A stretch of 64,000 nt of DNA from Patescibacteria group bacterium (GCA_041662625.1 JBAZSB010000001.1:681385-745384); one strand, 5' to 3'. Counted from the stretch's first letter, positions 20,385 through 41,925 are shown. Translations and numbers: made by a program. The notes: generated from the sequence alone by a model not told the origin.

Positions 20385-20517
20385 AATCTAACCTTAATAA
20401 AAAAATCCCCCCTAAATTAATTTAAGCGAGTAAAATTTGATGAATGATAAAGGCATAATTCTGTTTTATATCTTTATATTATAACATATTTCGCCTAATT
20501 GTCACAAATTACAAAAG

Positions 20518-20550
20518 CCGAGGCACCAATACCTCAGCTTTGCTAAGTGA
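20518..20550 (-). terminator. hairpin terminator after trx-ccdA fusion gene
   Basis: Minus-strand AAAGCTGAGG-N9-CCTCGGCTTT followed by a T-run. Confidence 0.5.
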
Positions 20551-20571: not shown

Positions 20572-21798
20572 TCAGCCAAACATAATCCAACCGGGTTTAA
20601 AAATCAATAAAATTCCTAAAATTAAAATAATAATTCCGCCAAACAAATTCGCCCAGTGGGTATATTTATTGCTGATGCCAAAAGCCTGCAAAGTTGTCAT
20701 CGCCACAATAAAAACAATTAAATCATCAAGCATGTAAAATAGAATGTAAAGTAGAATATAAGCATAGTACTGAATAGTGGGCAGTTTGGCCAAAGACAAA
20801 ATTTGTGTATAAATTGCCGGCAGGCCGGCGGAGCAGACCAGCTCCACCAAATTGACTGTAAAAGCCAAAACTATAATACCTAAAAGCGCCAGCCAAAATG
20901 TTTTTTGCTCGGTGATTTTCCTCAAACGGTCCATCACTTTTTTTCTTTTTTCATCATTAATCGCCCGGCAGGTGGCATTACGGTTAGACCACCACTCTTT
21001 TAAATGATACCCACCGCTTGAAATTGCTACTAGTCCAATGATAATTCTGATGGCGGCGATAAATCCCAAAAATAAAAACAGGTTAAGCCAAGCGGCTAAA
21101 AACAAAAAGTAGATTAGGGCCGAAACAAAAATAAAAACCGAGCCCAAAATCCACATTTTCCTTTTATCCTGCATACCCAAAAGTAAACTAATCAAAAAAA
21201 GCAAAATCCACATGGCACAGGGATTAAAACCATCGATTGCCCCAATTATGATTGTTAAAAACGGCAAAGACCAATTTTGAATATTAACTTCGCCCAAAAA
21301 TGGCAAAGTAAGAGTTTGCGGTGAACCTTTTGGTAAACATTGAGTATTACCTCCACTGACCTGCTGGTTGATAATATCACCGACTAAATCAGCACAACCG
21401 ACAGCCGAATGACTTTCTATAATATTTCTGATTTTTTGGCCAGTTGTTTCATCGTTGAGATAACCAGAAATTGTTTCCTGACCGATGACTGTGAAAGGTA
21501 CACCTGTAATTCTGACATTTAATTCCTTGCTAACTTCCTGCATCAGCTTAACGTTGTCTTGATTATTCCAAACTTCCAGGCGTCTGATATTAAGATTAGA
21601 AAATTCTCTTTCTAGTTTACCCAAAAAGACTTCTTCTTTGGCGCAATGGGGGCAGCCATCACCATAGAATAAAGTCAGATAAACTGGCTGAGGTTCTTGA
21701 GCAGAAACAAAGTTGGGCAGCAAAAAAAGACCGAACAAAAATACAAACGATAATTTTAATAAAAATTTATTCATGCAATTTATAGAATCAAGAAGCAA
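20572..21798 (-). CDS. thioredoxin-fold domain fused to CcdA/DsbD-like transmembrane electron-transfer domain
   Basis: 408 aa; signal peptide, CPHC thioredoxin motif (YGDGCPHCAKEE), then polytopic domain with ...GFNPCAMWIL... and a second Cys (CcdA/ScsB-like). Confidence 0.65.
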   Translation of the reverse strand: MLLDSINCMNKFLLKLSFVFLFGLFLLPNFVSAQEPQPVYLTLFYGDGCPHCAKEEVFLGKLEREFSNLNIRRLEVWNNQDNVKLMQEVSKELNVRITGVPFTVIGQETISGYLNDETTGQKIRNIIESHSAVGCADLVGDIINQQVSGGNTQCLPKGSPQTLTLPFLGEVNIQNWSLPFLTIIIGAIDGFNPCAMWILLFLISLLLGMQDKRKMWILGSVFIFVSALIYFLFLAAWLNLFLFLGFIAAIRIIIGLVAISSGGYHLKEWWSNRNATCRAINDEKRKKVMDRLRKITEQKTFWLALLGIIVLAFTVNLVELVCSAGLPAIYTQILSLAKLPTIQYYAYILLYILFYMLDDLIVFIVAMTTLQAFGISNKYTHWANLFGGIIILILGILLIFKPGWIMFG

Positions 21799-21860
21799 GA
21801 ATTAAGAATCACGGGGGTCTAGTTTAGCTTCCTTAATTCATGATTCTTGATTCATGATTC

Positions 21861-22130
21861 TTATTTATCTTTATTTTCCTCCAAGAATTTAATCAAATCC
21901 TTCCGATCAATCTCTCCTTGCTTACGGGCAAATTCATTGCCATCTTGGTCTAAAAAAATAAAAACTGGAATATCGCGGCCAATATTATATTTTTCTACCA
22001 TCTCTTTATCCTGATCATAATCATAATACTGGGTCTTTAGCCAAGGCAATTCTGCTTCAATTTTTTGCCAGCGCGGCCTCATGATAATACAGCCAGGACA
22101 CCAAACCGCGCCAAATTTCAAAACTTTCAT
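21861..22130 (-). CDS. thioredoxin-like protein (WCPGC)
   Basis: 89 aa; KFGAVWCPGCIIMRP active-site-like motif. Confidence 0.6.
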   Translation of the reverse strand: MKVLKFGAVWCPGCIIMRPRWQKIEAELPWLKTQYYDYDQDKEMVEKYNIGRDIPVFIFLDQDGNEFARKQGEIDRKDLIKFLEENKDK

Positions 22131-22131
22131 G

Positions 22132-23157
22132 CTAAATATTGAAATTAGTTATTAAACCCCTGGTTAAAAAACTCCACCAAGGCTTCTTAAATGATAAAAT
22201 TTTACCATCATCACCGCTGATTTCTACTTCAGTTTTAACTTGAATCGGAATAAAACCTAAAAATTTAGCTTGTTGGTTTAATTCTAAACTATAAACTGGT
22301 TTTTCTTTATCCAGGTTTAAAGAAACTTTTTCAACCACAACTTTACTTGAAACCGAAACAATTGAAACAGCTTGCTCCGGTTTTACACCGACTTCAACGG
22401 CTAAATCAGTAGCAATATCTTTTATTATTAACTTATCCTCTTCAACAATAAGAGGTGATTTGGTTTCAATTTCCAATTCCGATATCGCCTCTTTTTGACT
22501 TTCAACTAAAGCGGTGGGGACGGAAGGGATATATTTATAAAATTTAACTTCGCCTTCTTCAATATTAACATTGATTGGTGAAAGCTCCATTTTTATTGTC
22601 GGTGCTTCTGCCATTATTGAAGTGGTGGCTATTTCCACCCCAGCTGGTAAAATCAGCTTTGGCTCTATTTGAGGCCCTGTCGGCTGCGCGATTGAAGATG
22701 GAGTAATTTTTACTGGTGTTTCTTCTTCCCCTGCCGGAGCAGCTGAATCTTCTAATTCAACAATTGGATTAATACAGCCATTATCCAAACAATTTTTAAT
22801 CTTTGCTTCAATTTCTTTGCCGCTGATTTCATCTGTACTATAACCAGTAACTACTGATTCGCCAATAAAAGTAATTGGCACACCATTGGCACTTATACCA
22901 TAAGCTTGGGCTAATTGATTGAATAATGCAACATTTTCCTGGTCAGTCCAAACCTCATAACTTTTGACGGTTAATTCAGGATATTTGGTAACTAAAGTAG
23001 CCAAAAATGGTTTTTCCGCGGCGCAATGAGAACAGCCGGAGTTATAAAAGAAATAGATTGTCGTTGGGTGGGCAGCCAAAACAATAGCGGGTAATAAAAA
23101 AATACTAAAAAAGGCGAAAAAAAATAATCTCAAAAACGAATTTTTCATAACTGCCAA
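22132..23157 (-). CDS. secreted thioredoxin-fold protein with long C-terminal extension
   Basis: 341 aa; signal peptide; CSHC motif (NSGCSHCAAEKPFL) with paralogous layout to 20572..21798 N-domain; low-complexity E/V/I-rich tail. Confidence 0.55.
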   Translation of the reverse strand: MAVMKNSFLRLFFFAFFSIFLLPAIVLAAHPTTIYFFYNSGCSHCAAEKPFLATLVTKYPELTVKSYEVWTDQENVALFNQLAQAYGISANGVPITFIGESVVTGYSTDEISGKEIEAKIKNCLDNGCINPIVELEDSAAPAGEEETPVKITPSSIAQPTGPQIEPKLILPAGVEIATTSIMAEAPTIKMELSPINVNIEEGEVKFYKYIPSVPTALVESQKEAISELEIETKSPLIVEEDKLIIKDIATDLAVEVGVKPEQAVSIVSVSSKVVVEKVSLNLDKEKPVYSLELNQQAKFLGFIPIQVKTEVEISGDDGKILSFKKPWWSFLTRGLITNFNI

Positions 23158-23225
23158 AAATTATAATTAACCTAAGTAAAAACTGAACTTAATAATAACG
23201 CAAAAACTAATTTTTGTCCAGTCAA

Positions 23226-25376
23226 TTAAAGTTTTTTCCTTTTAAGCAAAAGTGAATTACCAACCACAAAAACATCACTTAGCCCCATAGCTGCCGCCGC
23301 TATCATCGGATTTAAAAAACCCATAGCGGCCAATGGGATGGCACAAATATTGTAAAAAAATGCCCAGAATAAATTCTGTTTAATCGTGATAAACGTTTTT
23401 TTAGCCAACATAATAGCCTCAACTGCTTTTAACGGATTGCCAGACATCAACACAATATTGCCAGCCTCAATCGCCACTTCAGTTCCGGTACCAATGGCAA
23501 TTCCTAAATCCGCTTGAGCTAAAGCTGGCGCATCATTAATGCCATCACCAACAAATGCAACAGTTTTGCCTAAGGCTTGCAAACTTTTTACTTCCCTAGC
23601 TTTATCATTAGGCAAAACTTCGGCAATTACTTTTTTAATGCCCAGTTGACTGGCAATATAGTCAGCCGTTTTTTGGTTGTCGCCCGAAATCATAACTGAT
23701 TCAATTCCGGTTTGGCTCAAAATTTCAATTGCTTTTTTTGCTTCGGGCCGCAACGTATCAGCGACAGCGATTAAACCGGCTAACTTGCCATCAACTAAAA
23801 CTAAAACTACGGTTTTACCCTGACTTTCTAATTCTTTAGCCGGCAAACCATTAGTTTGATTAATAAATTTTGAACTGCCAATTACCACTTTTTTACCATT
23901 AACTTCTGTTTCTAATCCCAAACCGGAAATCGCTTTAAAATTTTTAGCCGCATCTAGTTCCAAATTTTCTTCTTTGGCTTTTTTGACAATAGCCTTAGCG
24001 ATCGGATGCTCGGAACTGGATTCTGCCGACGCTGCAATTTGTAGTAATTCTGATTTCTGAGTTCTGAGCTCTGATTTCTGATTAACTATTATGTCCGTCA
24101 CCGCCGGCTCCCCTTTCGTCAATGTACCCGTTTTATCAAAAACGACAGTATCAATCTGCTTGGCTTTTTCCAAAAATTCCCCGCCTTTAATTAAAATCCC
24201 TCGCTGGGCTCCCCGGCCGGTTCCAACCATAATCGCAGTTGGCGTGGCAATGCCTAAGGCACAAGGACAGGAAATAATTAAAACTGCCACCATATTAATT
24301 AGTGACTGAGCCACTGGTGCACCCAGTACAAAATGCCAAATTATAAAAGTCAAAGCGGCCAGTAATAAAACGACCGGCACAAAAATACCGGAGATTTGAT
24401 CGGCTAAGCGCTGAACCGGTGCTTTGGTATTTTGGGCATTCTCAACCATTCTAATTATCTGGGATAAAATTGTATATTGGCCAATCTTAGTCACTTTAAC
24501 CTTGATCGCGCCTTGCTGATTTAGCGTCGCGCCATAAACATTGTTGCCCACTATTTTATCAACTGGCAGGCTCTCACCGGTTAGCATCGATTCATCAACC
24601 GTGGTTTGGCCTTCAATAATTTCTCCATCCAATGGAATTTTCTCACCGGGTTTGACTAGTAGAATATCGCCAAATTTTACTGAATCAATACTTACCTCCC
24701 TTTGGCCATTTTCATCAATAATTCTGGCTTGCCGGACGCCCAAATGCATTAATTTTTCAATTGCCTGCGAAGTCCGGCCCGTACTCAAAGCTTCTAAGTA
24801 ATGGCCCAATAAAATAATGGCGATAATCGTTGAGGCGCTTTCAAAATAAGTTTGGCCGCCGTTGAAAACTGCCCAGAGGCTATAAAAGTAAGCGGCCAAA
24901 GTTCCCAAAGAAATCAAAGAATCCATATCCGCCTTGAATCTTAAACTTTGCCGAATCATGCCTTGATGAAATTCCAAACCCGGGCCAAATAAAGAAATGG
25001 TAGTTAAAATCATTAAAATCCATTGCCAACTGCCAATCCCTAAAAAGCTGCCGGGCAATTCGACCATAACAAACATGGAGATTAAACCGGGGATGGCTAA
25101 AATCGCGGCAATGACAAAAATATTTAAACCATGCTTTAAATGATTTTTTTGCTGATGGCTTTGATACTCATCAACTATTTGGTAACCATTATTAATAATC
25201 GCCTTTTTCAGCTGATCAATAGTGGTTTGGTTTCCGTCATAGTCAATAATCGCCTGCGATTTGATATAATTAACCACTGCCTTGCTAACCCCGGGAATTT
25301 TTTGCAAAACTTTTTCATTGCTGACTGCACAAGAGGCACAATGCATGCCGGCAATATTTAATTTGATTTGTTTCAT
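23226..25376 (-). CDS. copA: copper-translocating P1B-type ATPase
   Basis: 716 aa; N-terminal [20 protein letters not shown] motif ([11 protein letters not shown]), DKTGTLT phosphorylation site, [10 protein letters not shown] hinge. Confidence 0.9.
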
Positions 25377-25446
25377 ATGTTTAAATATTCGTAGATTTGT
25401 AGATTCGCATCGTCATTCGCAGATTAGTATTAAACACACAACCTCT

Positions 25447-26808
25447 CTACTGAACCACAAACTTCCCCCACACCATTTGCATGCCGCAGGAAAATGGAAT
25501 CTCTCCGGTTTGCGTCGGCGTAAATTCAATGATATTTTCTCCCATCTGTAACTGCCGGGAAATATTATACCCGCCATGTAGAACGATACTACTGGTACAG
25601 CCAGAGAGTTGTTTAACATTAATAACCCAGCGAACCGGTATCCCTTTTTTAACCGGCAAAACATTTGGGTCATAACCACCATAAGTTAAATACATATTGA
25701 CGACCTGATAATTACCGGGATTATTACTTTGCTTCTGATTAATCATTGTTCCATGACCAAAACTAACACCCCAGCCAAAGTTGGTTAAGCCACGGTTAAT
25801 CATCACCAAGGCCAAAAGGCCAACCACCACTGCGGAAATTTTTATTATTTTTTTCATATAACTTTTGGATAAATAAGAAATAAAAGCGCCAAAGCCAAAC
25901 ATTAAAGGAATCGTACCTAAAGCGTAAACGGCTAAACTCAAGGCGCCGCGGGTGACACTGCCAGTGCCTAAAGCATAAAGCTGCATAGCTTGTAACGGCC
26001 CACAGGGCATCAGACCAGTTAATAAACCAATAACTAACGGCCCTTTGGGATTTTTACTGTACTTTTGCCCATATAAAAACTTAGCAATAAATGCCGGCGT
26101 TCTTAAACTTAATTTTTCTAGCATTTTAAAATTAGTAAAAAGTGAGACAGCCATTAAAATCATAAAAACCCCAGCTAAAAGCATCAGGCCGCCGGAAAAA
26201 TAAGGGTTGATCGCAAAAAATGAACCAATCCCGCCTAATATTCCACCAACAATAGTATAGGAAATTAACCGGCCGAAATTATATTGTAAATGCGGAATTG
26301 ATAAGCGTAATTTTTTTTCCCCACTGGCCGCTAATCCGGCTGAATAGGTTACCACTAGTCCCCCACACATACCAATACAGTGAAAGCTGGCTAAAATGCC
26401 GATAACAAATAACAAGCCATAACTTAAGTTTGACTCATTCAATCTGGCTAAAATTGCTAAAGCGCCTGTTTTAGTAACAAAAAAATAACCGACGGTCAAA
26501 CCAATTATAATTAATGGGATTAGCATACCCATTAAGAAATTCTTTAGGCCTGCCTGCTGTCCAGCTGAATTTACTGAACTCGCTGAACTCGCTGCATTTA
26601 CTGAATAATCAAAACTTTCGATTTTATCTTTGATGGCCTGAAATGAAATCTGATTCTGGTCGAACTCAACAAAACAATTGCCAGTTTGATAATTGACTTC
26701 AATTTTATTTACCCCTTTTAAAACATCAACTTCCGTTTCCAGCAAAGTCTTGCAGCTTTTACAATGCAACCCTTTGACCTGAAATTTTATTTTTTTTAGA
26801 TCAAGCAT
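25447..26808 (-). CDS. HMA domain / polytopic DsbD_2(UreH)-like membrane domain / C-terminal cupredoxin-like domain fusion protein
   Basis: ORF track gives 25447..26850, but the likely start is M15 (MLDLKKIKFQVKGLHCKSC), which removes the overlap with csoR. HMA motif GLHCKSC; membrane core with HCIGMCGG and PCGP motifs; C-terminal ...FSCGMQMVWGKFVV beta-rich domain. Confidence 0.5.
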   Translation of the reverse strand: MLDLKKIKFQVKGLHCKSCKTLLETEVDVLKGVNKIEVNYQTGNCFVEFDQNQISFQAIKDKIESFDYSVNAASSASSVNSAGQQAGLKNFLMGMLIPLIIIGLTVGYFFVTKTGALAILARLNESNLSYGLLFVIGILASFHCIGMCGGLVVTYSAGLAASGEKKLRLSIPHLQYNFGRLISYTIVGGILGGIGSFFAINPYFSGGLMLLAGVFMILMAVSLFTNFKMLEKLSLRTPAFIAKFLYGQKYSKNPKGPLVIGLLTGLMPCGPLQAMQLYALGTGSVTRGALSLAVYALGTIPLMFGFGAFISYLSKSYMKKIIKISAVVVGLLALVMINRGLTNFGWGVSFGHGTMINQKQSNNPGNYQVVNMYLTYGGYDPNVLPVKKGIPVRWVINVKQLSGCTSSIVLHGGYNISRQLQMGENIIEFTPTQTGEIPFSCGMQMVWGKFVVQ

Positions 26809-26809
26809 A

Positions 26810-27076
26810 TTATTTGTTATGCATCTTCTCCAAATGTAGGATTTCTTCAATCATCTCTTTTTTTCGGCCTTCATTACTCCCCTTCATCGCATTAGTAAAA
26901 CAAGTCTTCAGATGCCCTTCCAAAAGCATATTGTTCACCGATTTTAAAAGCCCAATCACCGCTAAATTCTGCTGCATGATATCAACACAATATTCTTTAG
27001 TCTCCACCATTTTAATGACCTTGGCTAAGTGACTTTGAGCTTTTTTTAAGTTAATTAAGGTTTTTTCTTGTTCCAT
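26810..27076 (-). CDS. csoR: copper-sensing transcriptional repressor CsoR/RcnR family
   Basis: 88 aa; ...KKAQSHLAKVIKMVETKEYCVDIMQQNLAVIGLLKSVNNMLLEGHLKTCF... aligns with the CsoR C-H-C ligand set (YCVD ... HLxTCF). Confidence 0.8.
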   Translation of the reverse strand: MEQEKTLINLKKAQSHLAKVIKMVETKEYCVDIMQQNLAVIGLLKSVNNMLLEGHLKTCFTNAMKGSNEGRKKEMIEEILHLEKMHNK

Positions 27077-27103
27077 AGAATTTTAGAATTAATGATTTAT
27101 TAA

Positions 27104-27126
27104 TACCTATACCCCAGGTATAGGTA
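27104..27126. promoter_or_regulatory. candidate CsoR operator: perfect 10-bp inverted repeat TACCTATACC-CCA-GGTATAGGTA
   Basis: Located 28-50 bp upstream of the csoR start; resembles known CsoR pseudo-palindromic operators (TACC...GGTA with a central G/C tract). Confidence 0.5.
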
Positions 27127-27178
27127 TGTTAGCAGTTAAAAAAATAAGTGTCAAGTATCCCCTAGCTAAACTGACAGA

Positions 27179-39689: not shown

Positions 39690-39766
39690 GTCCCAGTAGC
39701 TCAACTGGATAGAGCAACAGCCTTCTAAGCTGTAGGTTGAAGGTCCGAGTCCTTCCTGGGACGCCA
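39690..39766 (+). tRNA. tRNA-Arg (anticodon TCT), CCA encoded
   Basis: Hand-folded cloverleaf: acceptor GTCCCAG/CTGGGAC, D arm GCTC-AACTGGATA-GAGC, anticodon loop CTTCTAA, T arm GAAGG-TCCGAGT-CCTTC, discriminator G then CCA. Confidence 0.85.
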
Positions 39767-39767
39767 A

Positions 39768-39841
39768 GCGCCCATAGCTCAACTGGATAGAGCATCAGCT
39801 TCCGGAGCTGGGGGTTGTAGGTTCAAATCCTACTGGGCGCA
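39768..39841 (+). tRNA. tRNA-Arg (anticodon CCG)
   Basis: Acceptor GCGCCCA/TGGGCGC, anticodon loop TTCCGGA, T arm GTAGG-TTCAAAT-CCTAC, discriminator A; starts 1 nt after the previous tRNA. Confidence 0.85.
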
Positions 39842-39877
39842 CTATTCCAGATTTGACTTTACACATTTATATAGGAA

Positions 39878-40055
39878 GGTGCGCACCCGCCTCTGGCGGG
39901 CAATGGATAGAATGTGGGCTTCCGGAGTCCCGACTGCGTCGGGATTCGATTCCTACTGGGAGCGATGGCGATGGCAAGTAGGAAAGCAGGTTCTCCGCCA
40001 CATTATCAAATTACAAAAAGGCGGATCCGCCTCTGGCGGAAAGTCCTGCTGGGCG
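39878..40055 (+). pseudogene. degenerate tRNA-Arg(CCG)-like fragments carrying GC hairpin inserts
   Basis: 39883-39970 mirrors tRNA-Arg(CCG) (CAATGGATAGAATGT, GGGCTTCCGGAGTCCC, ...CCTACTGGGAGCGA) with a CCGCC-TCT-GGCGG hairpin in the D region. 39971-40055 has a T-arm-like GCAGGTTC / TCCTGC split by the 47-nt element 39994-40040, then TGGGCGCG. Confidence 0.6.
39994..40040. repeat. 46-47 nt GC-rich hairpin element copy 1 (TCCGCC-N20-GGCGGATCCGCC-N3-GGCGGA) inserted in a T-loop
   Basis: About 90% identical to copy at 49211-49256; both inserted between ..GGTTC and the 3' half of a tRNA T-loop. Confidence 0.7.
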
Positions 40056-40142
40056 CGAATAATAACTTTTAACATTTGACAATTAACTATTAGCAGTAAA
40101 GCTTAAAGTTAAAAGTCAAATGTTAACTGCTAATTGTTATAT

Positions 40143-40178
40143 GGTGGCCATGGTGAAATGGTTATCACTAGAGTTTGC
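40143..40178 (+). repeat. partial duplicate of tRNA-His 5' half
   Basis: GTGGCCATGGTGAAATGGTTATCACTAGAGTTTG identical to 40252-40286, then diverges. Confidence 0.7.
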
Positions 40179-40250
40179 CTGCCCGACGGCCAAACTAAAA
40201 ATTCGTAAAAATAATTTAATACAAAAATTCCTAATTCTAGGGCGCAAAAG

Positions 40251-40323
40251 GGTGGCCATGGTGAAATGGTTATCACTAGAGTTTGTGGCACTCTCGTTAC
40301 GGGTTCGATTCCCGTTGGCCACC
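40251..40323 (+). tRNA. tRNA-His (anticodon GTG) with G-1
   Basis: G-1 + GTGGCCA acceptor, D arm GTGA-AATGGTTA-TCAC, anticodon loop TTGTGGC, T arm ACGGG-TTCGATT-CCCGT, 3' TGGCCAC + discriminator C. Confidence 0.8.
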
Positions 40324-41925
40324 CCTTTGCGCCTTATTTGGGGCTAAAACCCCGATTGACGCACCACCTAAGGGGTAATTTACAGGTTCTAACCACCTAC
40401 TGTATCGAAGTATTTGAGATAAGCCGTTTTCAACTATTGAGAACGGTTTATTTAGTTCTATAGTGAGTTTTTTGTCTTTCAGGGTAAGGTTCGAGCCTAT
40501 AGTGGTTAGGATGGCCTTTTTAGTCTCTAAGTCGCCATGCTCAAAGGCATAGGTGGCATTACAGGCAAAATCAAAGGTCTTTTTAACCAGCTCGCGCCAG
40601 TTGTCGGCCCGGTGTTCGGTCCCACGCATTGCTTCCCTGATTTTATTCAGCTGACCGGTTAATTCGGTCTTCTTTTGTTTATATTGTTCGTCATCGATCT
40701 GATCTTTTATCTTCATGTTTAACAAGTTATCTAACTGCCTTTCAAGGCTTTCACAGGTCCGCTGTTGATTATCATAAATCTTCTGCCGGTCTTCAGTTTC
40801 TTGGTCATTCATTTTATCAAGATATTCAAGCGCTATATCTTTAAAAGTTTCTGGTATTTTAATTTTTATCAGCTGGTTAACTATCTGCAATTCTAAATCT
40901 CTGACTTCCACGGTTTTTTGGGAACAGGTGGGTAACTTTCTTTTAATGCAACGATAATAAGTATAATGATGAACATGGCCATTGCCTTTGTTGGTTTTAA
41001 ATTTTTCTTCTGCGGTAATCATTGATCCGCACTCACCGCACCTGATCATACCAGTAAAAGCAAACACATGCTTCTGGGGCCGGGCTTTTCCTTTACGGCC
41101 CAAAAGTTCCTGAACCCTCCAGTATTCCTCTTCGATTATCATTTTCTCATGTTTGCCATCATACCAGTTGCCGCTACCCACTGGATATTCAAACTTACCA
41201 TAATAAAAAGGGTCATTAAAAATTCTGTATATTGAGCTTTCACTCATTGGCTTACCGCCCATTCTTCTTTTTACAGGCGTCCTATAACCCCACTCATTAT
41301 TGAGCTTGTTTAATATCTCGGATACAGGATGTAAACCAGTCAACATTAACTCAAACGCTTTTCTAATTAAAGGAAACCTTTCTGGATCCGTTAAAACTTT
41401 TTTTTCTCCTTTTAACCCAAGTTTATCTCCCATATAGCCCGGCTTAACAACACAAGGATTCCAACCCTGATTAACCTTTGCCATCAGGCCTCTTCTGGTA
41501 TTTGTTTTTAAGTCTAAAATAAACTGGTTAGCCATACCAAATTCAACATTCATAAGCATAACATTGTCTTCGGGATAATAATCACGTTCTGGCGTCCTTA
41601 TATGCTTAATAATGCCATTCTGTAAGAGATGTGATGTTTTACCACTATCCTCGGCATTTCTAGACAAACGATCCAGCTTCCAGCAAAGTATTCCCTGCGC
41701 CTCGCCACTTTTTATCCGATCCAACATCTCATTAAATACCTCTCGGCCCGTATCTTTAGCTGATTTTGACTCAGTAAATATTTTTACTATTTTAAGACTA
41801 AATTTGTTTGCTACTTCTTTCAGAGAATCAATTTGTGAGGGAATAGATAAAACCTGCCGGTCTTCTGATTCGGTTGACTTCCGGGCATAGATAAAATATT
41901 TAATTTTGTCCGAGTTGTCCTTCAT
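40297..41925 (-). CDS. large serine recombinase (resolvase/invertase N-domain + recombinase domain + zinc ribbon)
   Basis: 542 aa; N-terminal ...FIYARKSTESEDRQVLSIPSQIDSL... catalytic-Ser region, central recombinase domain, ...CGECGSMITAEEKFKTNKGNGHVHHYTYYRC... zinc ribbon; last 9 codons (GQRESNP) are encoded by the complement of the tRNA-His T-arm/acceptor. Confidence 0.8.
   Translation of the reverse strand: MKDNSDKIKYFIYARKSTESEDRQVLSIPSQIDSLKEVANKFSLKIVKIFTESKSAKDTGREVFNEMLDRIKSGEAQGILCWKLDRLSRNAEDSGKTSHLLQNGIIKHIRTPERDYYPEDNVMLMNVEFGMANQFILDLKTNTRRGLMAKVNQGWNPCVVKPGYMGDKLGLKGEKKVLTDPERFPLIRKAFELMLTGLHPVSEILNKLNNEWGYRTPVKRRMGGKPMSESSIYRIFNDPFYYGKFEYPVGSGNWYDGKHEKMIIEEEYWRVQELLGRKGKARPQKHVFAFTGMIRCGECGSMITAEEKFKTNKGNGHVHHYTYYRCIKRKLPTCSQKTVEVRDLELQIVNQLIKIKIPETFKDIALEYLDKMNDQETEDRQKIYDNQQRTCESLERQLDNLLNMKIKDQIDDEQYKQKKTELTGQLNKIREAMRGTEHRADNWRELVKKTFDFACNATYAFEHGDLETKKAILTTIGSNLTLKDKKLTIELNKPFSIVENGLSQILRYSRWLEPVNYPLGGASIGVLAPNKAQRGGQRESNP

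Follow-up and report, generated by a model that had tools for sequence, protein, structure and literature searches.

What is a row of genes that opens with a CsoR-type copper repressor doing with three thioredoxin-like proteins at its far end, and do all of these genes really belong to one operon? The question is raised by a 64,000-nucleotide (nt) stretch of DNA from a Patescibacteria group bacterium (GCA_041662625.1 JBAZSB010000001.1:681385-745384), to which we refer at its full length as the window, and in which six co-directional open reading frames on the minus strand span positions 20572-27076. In order of transcription we call them csoR, P2, copA, P4, P5 and P6. A preliminary description of the window had counted six minus-strand genes here, which is right, and had taken them for a single copper and thiol-redox operon. 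We consider it probable that the locus consists instead of two adjacent modules, one of them (csoR-P2-copA) concerned with copper detoxification and the other (P4-P5-P6) with thiol-redox chemistry in the cell envelope. It is largely an ordinary locus, with main parts that are common in databases; indeed, all of the six genes except P4 have hundreds to thousands of database relatives. As for its layout, spacers of 60-70 bp had been described throughout, and this holds for three of the five junctions and not as a uniform rule, the gaps along the row being 1, 70, 77, 1 and 86 nt when the starts of P2, P4 and P6 are taken from identical database proteins (453, 338 and 400 amino acids, respectively), which places these starts at 26808, 23148 and 21774.

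Where the two gene groups meet

The case for two modules begins with the company that these genes keep elsewhere. Among 80 metagenome loci holding a P6 relative, csoR, P2 and copA are present in a single one (L084) and missing from the remaining 79, and P5 stands directly upstream of P6 in 26 of these 80 unrelated loci. Seen from the copper side, the picture is much the same, with P5 or P6 present in just two of 80 P2 loci. The neighbours that P6 does have include DUF134 (24 of the 80 loci), DUF5320 (15 of the 80) and ZIP genes (9 of the 80), and YibE_F carriers also recur. In Patescibacteria, small DUF5320 and DUF134 genes usually sit directly upstream of P5-P6, and ZIP and YibE_F genes often accompany them. 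Neighbours of this kind point to a wider link of P5-P6 to metal-carrier genes, in which DUF134 might be the regulator.

How, then, might the two groups have come to stand side by side? The complete six-gene order recurs in locus L161, where P4 is 70% identical and where the row is flanked, as in the window, by ComM and PAS-kinase genes; partial versions of the same order are found in L001, L011, L084 and L163. In L163, a DUF5320-DUF5320-DUF134 set is inserted between copA and the P4-like gene, and L164 has, at the corresponding chromosomal position, DUF5320-DUF134-cupin-YibE_F-ZIP-P5-P6 and no cop genes at all. On these sequence comparisons, the locus reads as two modules that became neighbours in a single small clade, inside a metal and redox region that varies. 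The gene for an IS200-like Y1 transposase borders the metal/redox region in both L163 (1390-1959) and L164 (488-994), and its position fits a variable region that exchanges cop genes and other metal genes.

The spacer between copA and P4 is where a second transcript might begin, and it carries a promoter-like element (Table 1) that has a close counterpart, TGGACA-17-TAATAT, in the equivalent spacer of L161 (7929-7957); in L084, TTGAAA-17-TAGAAT lies ahead of P5. Between the window and L161 this spacer is about 81% identical, compared with about 75% for the flanking coding block. Promoter and terminator scans return about as many sites here as they do in shuffled sequence, and we have made use of only two sites, both of which have comparative support. 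P4-P5-P6 probably has its own promoter, to judge by the conserved element, and transcription from the cop promoter may run on into the three genes as well; such read-through would co-induce them and may help in the repair of copper-damaged thiols.

Might all six genes nonetheless form one CsoR-autoregulated operon, in which P4-P5-P6 would serve as an Scs-like defence against copper-induced disulfide stress? The six genes do share one strand, the sole terminator-like hairpin comes after P6, and cop genes adjoin P5/P6 not only in the window but also in L001, L011, L084, L161 and L163. It is known, in addition, that copper makes cells depend on DsbC/DsbD and ScsABCD for reducing and isomerising periplasmic disulfides, a demand that speaks for an operon of this kind. 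Two further observations weigh against keeping the modules apart, namely the lack of a terminator between copA and P4 and the persistence of cop-redox adjacency among relatives with just 58-74% P2 identity, and because of these the two modules may truly be coupled in function. However, we regard the single operon as rather unlikely, since it has to contend with the 79 P6 loci that do without csoR, P2 and copA, the 78 P2 loci that do without both P5 and P6, the preference of P6 for DUF5320 and DUF134 partners, the three genes that part copA from the redox genes in L163, the conserved promoter-like element in the copA-P4 spacer, and a failure of the redox proteins to qualify by sequence as members of the ScsB or ScsC families.

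Table 1. Positions of the genes, protein domains and nucleic acid elements of the locus, numbered from the first letter of the window
Feature	Position	Strand	Evidence or detail
Sigma-70-like promoter TTGACA-17-TAACAT, TG-extended	27126..27154	-	10/12 consensus matches
Candidate CsoR operator, perfect 11-3-11 palindrome	27103..27127	.	Arms 100% complementary; overlaps -10
csoR, 88 amino acids, Cu(I)-type CsoR/RcnR-family repressor	26810..27076	-	PF02583, E 1.7e-17, 64 bits (cut-off 22.8)
P2, 453 amino acids, HMA + seven transmembrane helices (TM0 + DsbD_2) + CupA-like cupredoxin	25447..26808	-	
P2 N-terminal HMA, residues 4-72, CxxC = C16/C19, predicted cytoplasmic	26593..26799	-	PF00403, E 1.4e-9
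P2 membrane domain, residues 86-343, TM0 + six-helix DsbD_2	25780..26553	-	PF13386, E 3.7e-46
P2 C-terminal CupA-like cupredoxin, residues 362-453, predicted extracytoplasmic	25450..25725	-	phmmer, Foldseek
copA, 716 amino acids, P1B-1 Cu(I)-exporting ATPase, one HMA domain	23226..25376	-	TIGR01511, 607 bits (cut-off 397)
Promoter-like TGGACA-17-TATTAT in the copA-P4 spacer, candidate internal promoter	23192..23220	-	Consensus match only
P4, 338 amino acids, signal/anchor + thioredoxin-like (CSHC) + linker + PepSY-like C-terminal domain	22132..23148	-	
P5, 89 amino acids, cytoplasmic thioredoxin, WCPGC	21861..22130	-	PF14595, 1.4e-11; PF00085, 8.7e-10
Stable RNA hairpin in the 86-nt P5-P6 spacer	21785..21853	-	22-nt arms, 91% complementary
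P6, 400 amino acids, signal/anchor + exported thioredoxin-like (CPHC) + six-helix membrane domain	20572..21774	-	
Terminator-like hairpin closing the gene row	20514..20541	-	12-bp stem, 5 G-C pairs, 31 nt past the P6 stop

Copper: CsoR, CopA and P2

Is the repressor that heads the first of our two modules truly a copper sensor? Its membership of the PF02583 family is clear (Table 1), and Y29, C30, H55, C59 and E78 are invariant among 22 homologues; these residues we take to correspond to Y35, C36, H61, C65 and E81 of M. tuberculosis CsoR. By alignment, the set is the Cu(I) fingerprint, and not that of the RcnR, FrmR or CstR type, and the C-H-C ligands (C30/H55/C59) that the preliminary description had picked out are all in place. 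That description had also noticed a perfect palindrome ahead of csoR, which reads ATACCTATACC-CCA-GGTATAGGTAT and of which each arm proves to be one base longer than claimed. It holds two nested TAC/GTA dyads (X5 and X17) flanking a CCTGGGG core, and its pattern, TACCN3ACCN3GGTN3GGTA, is matched once in the window, where 0.05 matches would be expected by chance. A similar inverted repeat, mostly imperfect, lies at the equivalent position upstream of csoR in all 15 of the related loci examined, in most of which it is directly preceded by a TTGACA-17-TAnnAT promoter, and the exact pattern is present in nine of 160 fetched loci, upstream of csoR every time.

The CsoR operators that have been studied are TAC/GTA inverted repeats flanking G-tracts, with an X9 spacing (PMC3902906). 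Our candidate shares with them the TAC/GTA repeat, the G-tracts and the overlap with a promoter, but its dyads are spaced as TAC-X5-GTA and TAC-X17-GTA and not with the X9 of the studied sites (PMC3902906), a departure that has to be counted against it. Because the pattern is rare in the window and because the operator recurs upstream of csoR in related loci, we nevertheless hold that CsoR autoregulation through this candidate operator, raised as a possibility in the preliminary description, is plausible and well supported. From what is known of the family, apo-CsoR would bind the palindrome over the -10 element and the transcription start and so block transcription, and Cu(I) at C30/H55/C59 would free the repressor from the DNA.

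The natural comparison is of course with the CsoR-regulated cop operons of Firmicutes, Actinobacteria and Thermus, among them B. subtilis csoR/copZA, L. monocytogenes csoR-copA-copZ, and the S. lividans and M. tuberculosis (cso) systems. Shared with these are a small PF02583 repressor with an x-C-H-C Cu(I) site, an operon that regulates itself and includes a P1B-1 CopA, and a TAC/GTA inverted-repeat operator that surrounds a G/C core and overlaps the promoter. Unlike them, the locus has a membrane fusion of 453 amino acids, P2, where the soluble CopZ would be, and its operator is AT-richer and built of nested X5 and X17 dyads in place of X9. The third gene had been named copA from the outset and the name is secure: in addition to its TIGR01511 match (Table 1), the protein has the motifs CPC370, DKTGT414, YN675 and M697xxS700 of the P1B-1 family, and it would pump Cu(I) outward. 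The motif in its transmembrane (TM) helix 8 (23274-23288, residues 697-701) is MGLSD and not the usual MxxSS; the second Ser is thus Asp701, and among 46 CopA relatives encoded in the fetched loci eight likewise have Asp there.

What, then, is P2? The databases call it a 'sulfite exporter TauE/SafE', and the preliminary description had given it three domains, all of which are there; indeed, in a domain search of P2 both DsbD_2 and the cupredoxin pass their Pfam thresholds. Residues 133-334 cover positions 2-198 of the 199 in the DsbD_2 profile, which amounts to a full-length match, and the tail matches Cupredoxin_1 at E 7.7e-7 and 29.5 bits (cut-off 27). The same tail matches the CupA structures 2MRY/4F2E by phmmer (E 2.6e-15, with the ligands aligned) and 4F2E by Foldseek (TM-score 0.85, root-mean-square deviation 1.6 A, 36% identity). 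C404, C441, M443 and M445 of P2 align with C74, C111, M113 and M115 of CupA. In CupA itself, Cu(I) is held at two sites, S1 (C74/C111) and S2 (C74/M113/M115) (PMC5646241, PMC7558416). Among 79 homologues, with identities as low as 34%, 78-79 retain the four Cu(I) ligands of the P2 tail and all 79 retain C16 and C19 of the HMA domain; the scan for P2 loci made no selection on either the HMA or the CupA-like ligand positions. Within the membrane domain, TM1 carries H143-C144-x-x-M147-C148-G-G and TM4 carries M267-P-C269-G-P, in columns that are invariant, although this particular invariance is biased, since the two motifs doubled as scan patterns. To judge by these residues, P2 is a copper protein with three conserved metal sites.

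The fusion had been thought an unusual architecture, and this we cannot sustain. More than 4,000 relatives of P2 score E<=1e-5; the top-scoring 120 come close to full length without exception, and the majority share its three Pfam domains. When one genome was scanned for each species, 80 matches were obtained, mostly full length, from Patescibacteria, from cultured Clostridia (C. beijerinckii, C. magnum, Lacrimispora and Acetobacterium), from Treponema and from DPANN archaea. Of the 17 closest loci, 14 have csoR immediately ahead of P2, and about 51 of 80 loci, from Patescibacteria, Clostridia, Treponema and DPANN alike, have a CopA-type gene no more than 10 kb away from P2. Many relatives of about 495-510 amino acids carry an extra C-terminal tail with CxxxCxC beyond the CupA-like domain, which the P2 of the window, at 453, does not have, and relatives of about 610 amino acids are also found. 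Proteins with HMA and DsbD_2 domains have already been listed in the predicted CsoR meta-regulon of gut Firmicutes (PMC4938975), and this listing was the sole relevant item in a literature search that found no functional study of the P2 family.

It is the topology of P2 that decides what it could do. No signal peptide is present, and the segment ahead of TM0 is rich in lysine and arginine; a structure model gives TM0 and six further helices, with breaks at C148 and ahead of C269. Across 51 sequences, the mean number of lysines plus arginines per loop alternates along the chain (4.7, 1.7, 4.1, 0, 8.3, 0.8, 3.3 and 1.9), and because of this alternation and the full-length DsbD_2 match we think that P2 probably has its HMA domain inside and its CupA-like domain outside, and thus an outward orientation. 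With soft ligands at both faces and within the membrane, P2 then most likely relays Cu(I), either across the membrane or at it. Cu(I) would be taken up at the cytoplasmic HMA site and would follow a membrane path of soft ligands (H143, C144, M147, C148, M267 and C269) towards the CupA-type binuclear Cu(I) site, which sits on the domain predicted to face outward; P2 would in this way either export Cu(I) or retain outside the Cu(I) that CopA has exported, preventing its re-entry. Several points count against this account. An outward CupA-like domain needs TM4 to span the membrane, and TM4 (residues 258-280) falls below a simple hydropathy threshold; CupA of S. pneumoniae works at the cytoplasmic side; how P2 would transport, and in which direction, is something that we infer; and the DsbD_2 superfamily moves electrons as well as ions, which makes an electron-relay role for P2 possible.

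That last thought can be taken further, for P2 might not be a copper channel at all and might instead conduct electrons in the manner of DsbD/CcdA, keeping the outward CupA-like cysteines (S1) reduced, so that its tail would both reduce Cu(II) and trap Cu(I), recharging itself as it does so. P2 is a true member of the DsbD superfamily (PF13386, with a weak match to the DsbD model NF001419 at 8.4e-5), its cysteines are modelled in broken TM1 and TM4 helices that look DsbD-like, and CupA reduces Cu(II) via C74/C111, with a re-reducing source that is not known (PMC5646241). However, TM1 has H-C-x-x-M-C and not a single Cys in a PC motif, M267 before C269 completes what is a soft-metal ligand set, and the HMA domain serves as a metal site and is not known to donate electrons. 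We take the UreH group, moreover, to be the same as PF13386/DsbD_2. UreH proteins have been reported as Ni/Co transporters (PMC2667541), and all in all we find an electron conduit fairly improbable. Somewhat less probable still is a P2 with only six true spans, in which the HMA and CupA-like domains would both be cytoplasmic and the whole would act, like CupA, as a membrane-tethered double chaperone that gathers Cu(I) at the membrane and feeds CopA. The weak hydrophobicity of TM4 would suit such a protein, as would the neighbourhood of P2 and copA in those 51 or so of 80 loci and the fact that the characterised CupA partners the cytoplasmic metal-binding domain of its CopA. On the other hand, the charge pattern in the 51 sequences fits seven spans (3.3 in the TM5-TM6 loop and 0.8 in the TM4-TM5 loop), the Pfam match spans the entire six-helix DsbD_2 profile, the CopA encoded here carries an HMA-type and not a cupredoxin-type metal-binding domain, and the invariant ligands buried in the membrane would be left unexplained.

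One could finally take the source annotation of P2 ('sulfite exporter TauE/SafE family protein') at its word, recall the cstR-tauE operons known in staphylococci and the thiol-redox genes nearby, and see in the locus a CstR-like persulfide sensor with its sulfite exporter, serving reactive sulfur and not copper. This we reject as extremely unlikely: the copper-type His55 is invariant in CsoR, as are Y29 and E78, P2 matches DsbD_2 and gives no TauE match at the E<=0.01 listing threshold, it bears two dedicated Cu(I) domains, a Cu-ATPase belongs to the same operon, and the operator is of the CsoR TAC/GTA type. A mercury reading of P2 has also been set aside, as its NCBIfam MerTP and MerP matches are confined to the HMA domain, and CsoR, CopA and the CupA-like domain speak against it.

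If P2 is the Cu(I) relay that we favour, how does it compare with what is already known? With CupA of S. pneumoniae (copY-cupA-copA) it shares a cupredoxin fold, C...CxMxM ligands, attachment to the membrane and a gene beside copA. The two differ in that CupA has a single N-terminal anchor, is cytoplasmic and works with a CopA that has a cupredoxin-type metal-binding domain, none of which is true of P2, whose CupA-like domain is C-terminal to seven predicted spans, is predicted to lie outside and has an HMA-type CopA for a partner; the regulator, too, is CopY there and CsoR here. A 2020 review describes CupA as restricted to a few streptococci, whereas the fused CupA-type form that P2 represents is far more widespread. 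There is also a likeness to UreH-like Ni/Co permeases, to other LysE-superfamily metal carriers and to MerT/MerP and MerTP fusions, all of which are, like P2, small polytopic carriers with ligands inside the membrane and sometimes an HMA fusion. P2 is set apart from these by H-C-x-x-M-C, M-P-C-G-P, its copper context and its CupA-like domain.

The thiol-redox proteins P4, P5 and P6

The second module had been described as two secreted CxxC thioredoxin-fold proteins followed by a Trx-CcdA fusion, the whole resembling the Scs copper-sensitivity suppressors, and only parts of this can be kept. P4 does answer to a secreted thioredoxin-fold protein, with one N-terminal hydrophobic segment and a thioredoxin domain that is paralogous to the N-terminal domain of P6 (30% identity, E 2e-24). 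P5 does not: no hydrophobic segment was found in it, and it is therefore cytoplasmic and not secreted. P4 is also the one uncommon protein of the row, with only about six full-length homologues. Its C-terminal 100 or so amino acids (22132-22470, residues ~227-338, ending KKPWWSFL) form a domain that occurs in 586 representative proteins; ten relatives of this domain that were scanned include Kazal inhibitor, DUF333, Kre9/KNH, thioredoxin and peptidase C25 proteins, secreted-type proteins among them, and several of the ten give weak PepSY matches. In P4 itself, the C-terminal part has no Pfam match at E<=10, PepSY included.

P6 belongs to a family of more than 7,700 matches, whose members are named 'hypothetical' or 'thioredoxin family' in the databases. 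Its invariant cysteines are C41/C44, C186 (in NPC, TM1), C269 (in a cytoplasmic loop) and C314 (in VCSAGLP, TM4), and it has an extra pair, C127/C147; the distribution of lysine and arginine puts the thioredoxin domain outside, and the modelled TM1 and TM4 helices break at C186 (183/184) and at C314 (316). Six helices with a Cys in both TM1 and TM4, together with an exported redox domain, are exactly the design of CcdA/DsbD. By sequence, however, the P6 membrane domain does not belong to CcdA/DsbD (PF02683). It has no NCBIfam match and no Pfam match at E<=10; none of 46 P6 family members matches DsbD_TM or DsbD_2 even at E<=10; and neither a sequence profile nor Foldseek finds it a match in the PDB, where Foldseek matched only the P6 thioredoxin domain. 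Comparison by hhalign gave a probability of 1% for the P6 membrane domain against the DsbD_2 domain of P2 and no internal repeat between its first and second halves, negatives that are both weak at so low a diversity (Neff ~2). SfLAP was also considered for the membrane part, and its match in one of 46 relatives, at 0.014, was too weak to use. P6, then, resembles DsbD/CcdA by design, a likeness that implies no homology, and the names Trx-CcdA fusion and Scs-like hold for it as functional analogies only.

What such a pair of proteins might do together is not hard to imagine. P5 would hand reducing equivalents, via the TM1 and TM4 cysteines of P6, to the exported thioredoxin domain of P6, from which they may continue to the paralogous surface protein P4. 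The same logic of a cytoplasmic thioredoxin combined with a six-helix core and an exported domain governs DsbD, CcdA and ScsB, whose donor is TrxA and whose acceptors are ScsC, DsbC or CcmG. With Scs the locus also has in common that its thiol-redox genes neighbour copper genes. The differences are considerable nonetheless. The membrane domain of P6, unlike those of DsbD, CcdA and ScsB, is without a Pfam or NCBIfam match; its exported CxxC is CPHC, of a DsbA/PDI-like kind, where ScsC has CPYC; and the association with copper genes, unlike that of Scs, is limited to one small clade. Neither a DsbD-family ScsB, nor a DsbA/DsbG-like ScsC with CPYC, nor a TlpA-like ScsD is to be recognised here, the active sites being CPHC and CSHC, and a profile of the P6 thioredoxin domain reaches only E 0.09-0.17 against ScsC structures.

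The spacer between P5 and P6 deserves a word of its own. It folds into a hairpin of -25 kcal/mol (z = -4.4), as stable as which none of 200 shuffles proved to be, that ends about 10 nt ahead of the P6 ATG and is followed by no T-run. The hairpin is missing in L161, and because P5 and P6 are only 1 nt apart there we take it to have been inserted locally; a role in processing or stability, or else in translational control, is conceivable. In the six-gene region no Rfam family was found at the gathering threshold. Three tRNA genes (Arg-TCT, Arg-CCG and His-GTG) at 39690-40325 are the only Rfam matches of the window at that threshold.

What the protein families may mean

It has to be said that the locus itself adds little, given that CsoR-controlled cop operons are a textbook matter; what makes it worthwhile is a pair of large protein families that bear a wrong name or none. 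In many anaerobes, ultra-small bacteria and archaea, CopA probably has P2 as its standard partner, whether chaperone or relay, and P5-P6 is a good candidate for the route by which reducing power is delivered to the Patescibacteria cell envelope. Taking the two families jointly, we would go one step further and suggest, tentatively and with more doubt than confidence, that the P2 family is an ATP-independent transmembrane Cu(I) relay or exporter and that P5-P6 is the Patescibacteria counterpart of TrxA-DsbD. Either idea could be put to the test in Clostridia that can be cultivated, or with the proteins expressed in E. coli. If P2 is indeed such a relay, CupA-type copper sites would be widespread and no longer a streptococcal curiosity, and if P5-P6 does take the place of TrxA-DsbD, then that counterpart would be built around a membrane domain that goes unrecognised by every family library.

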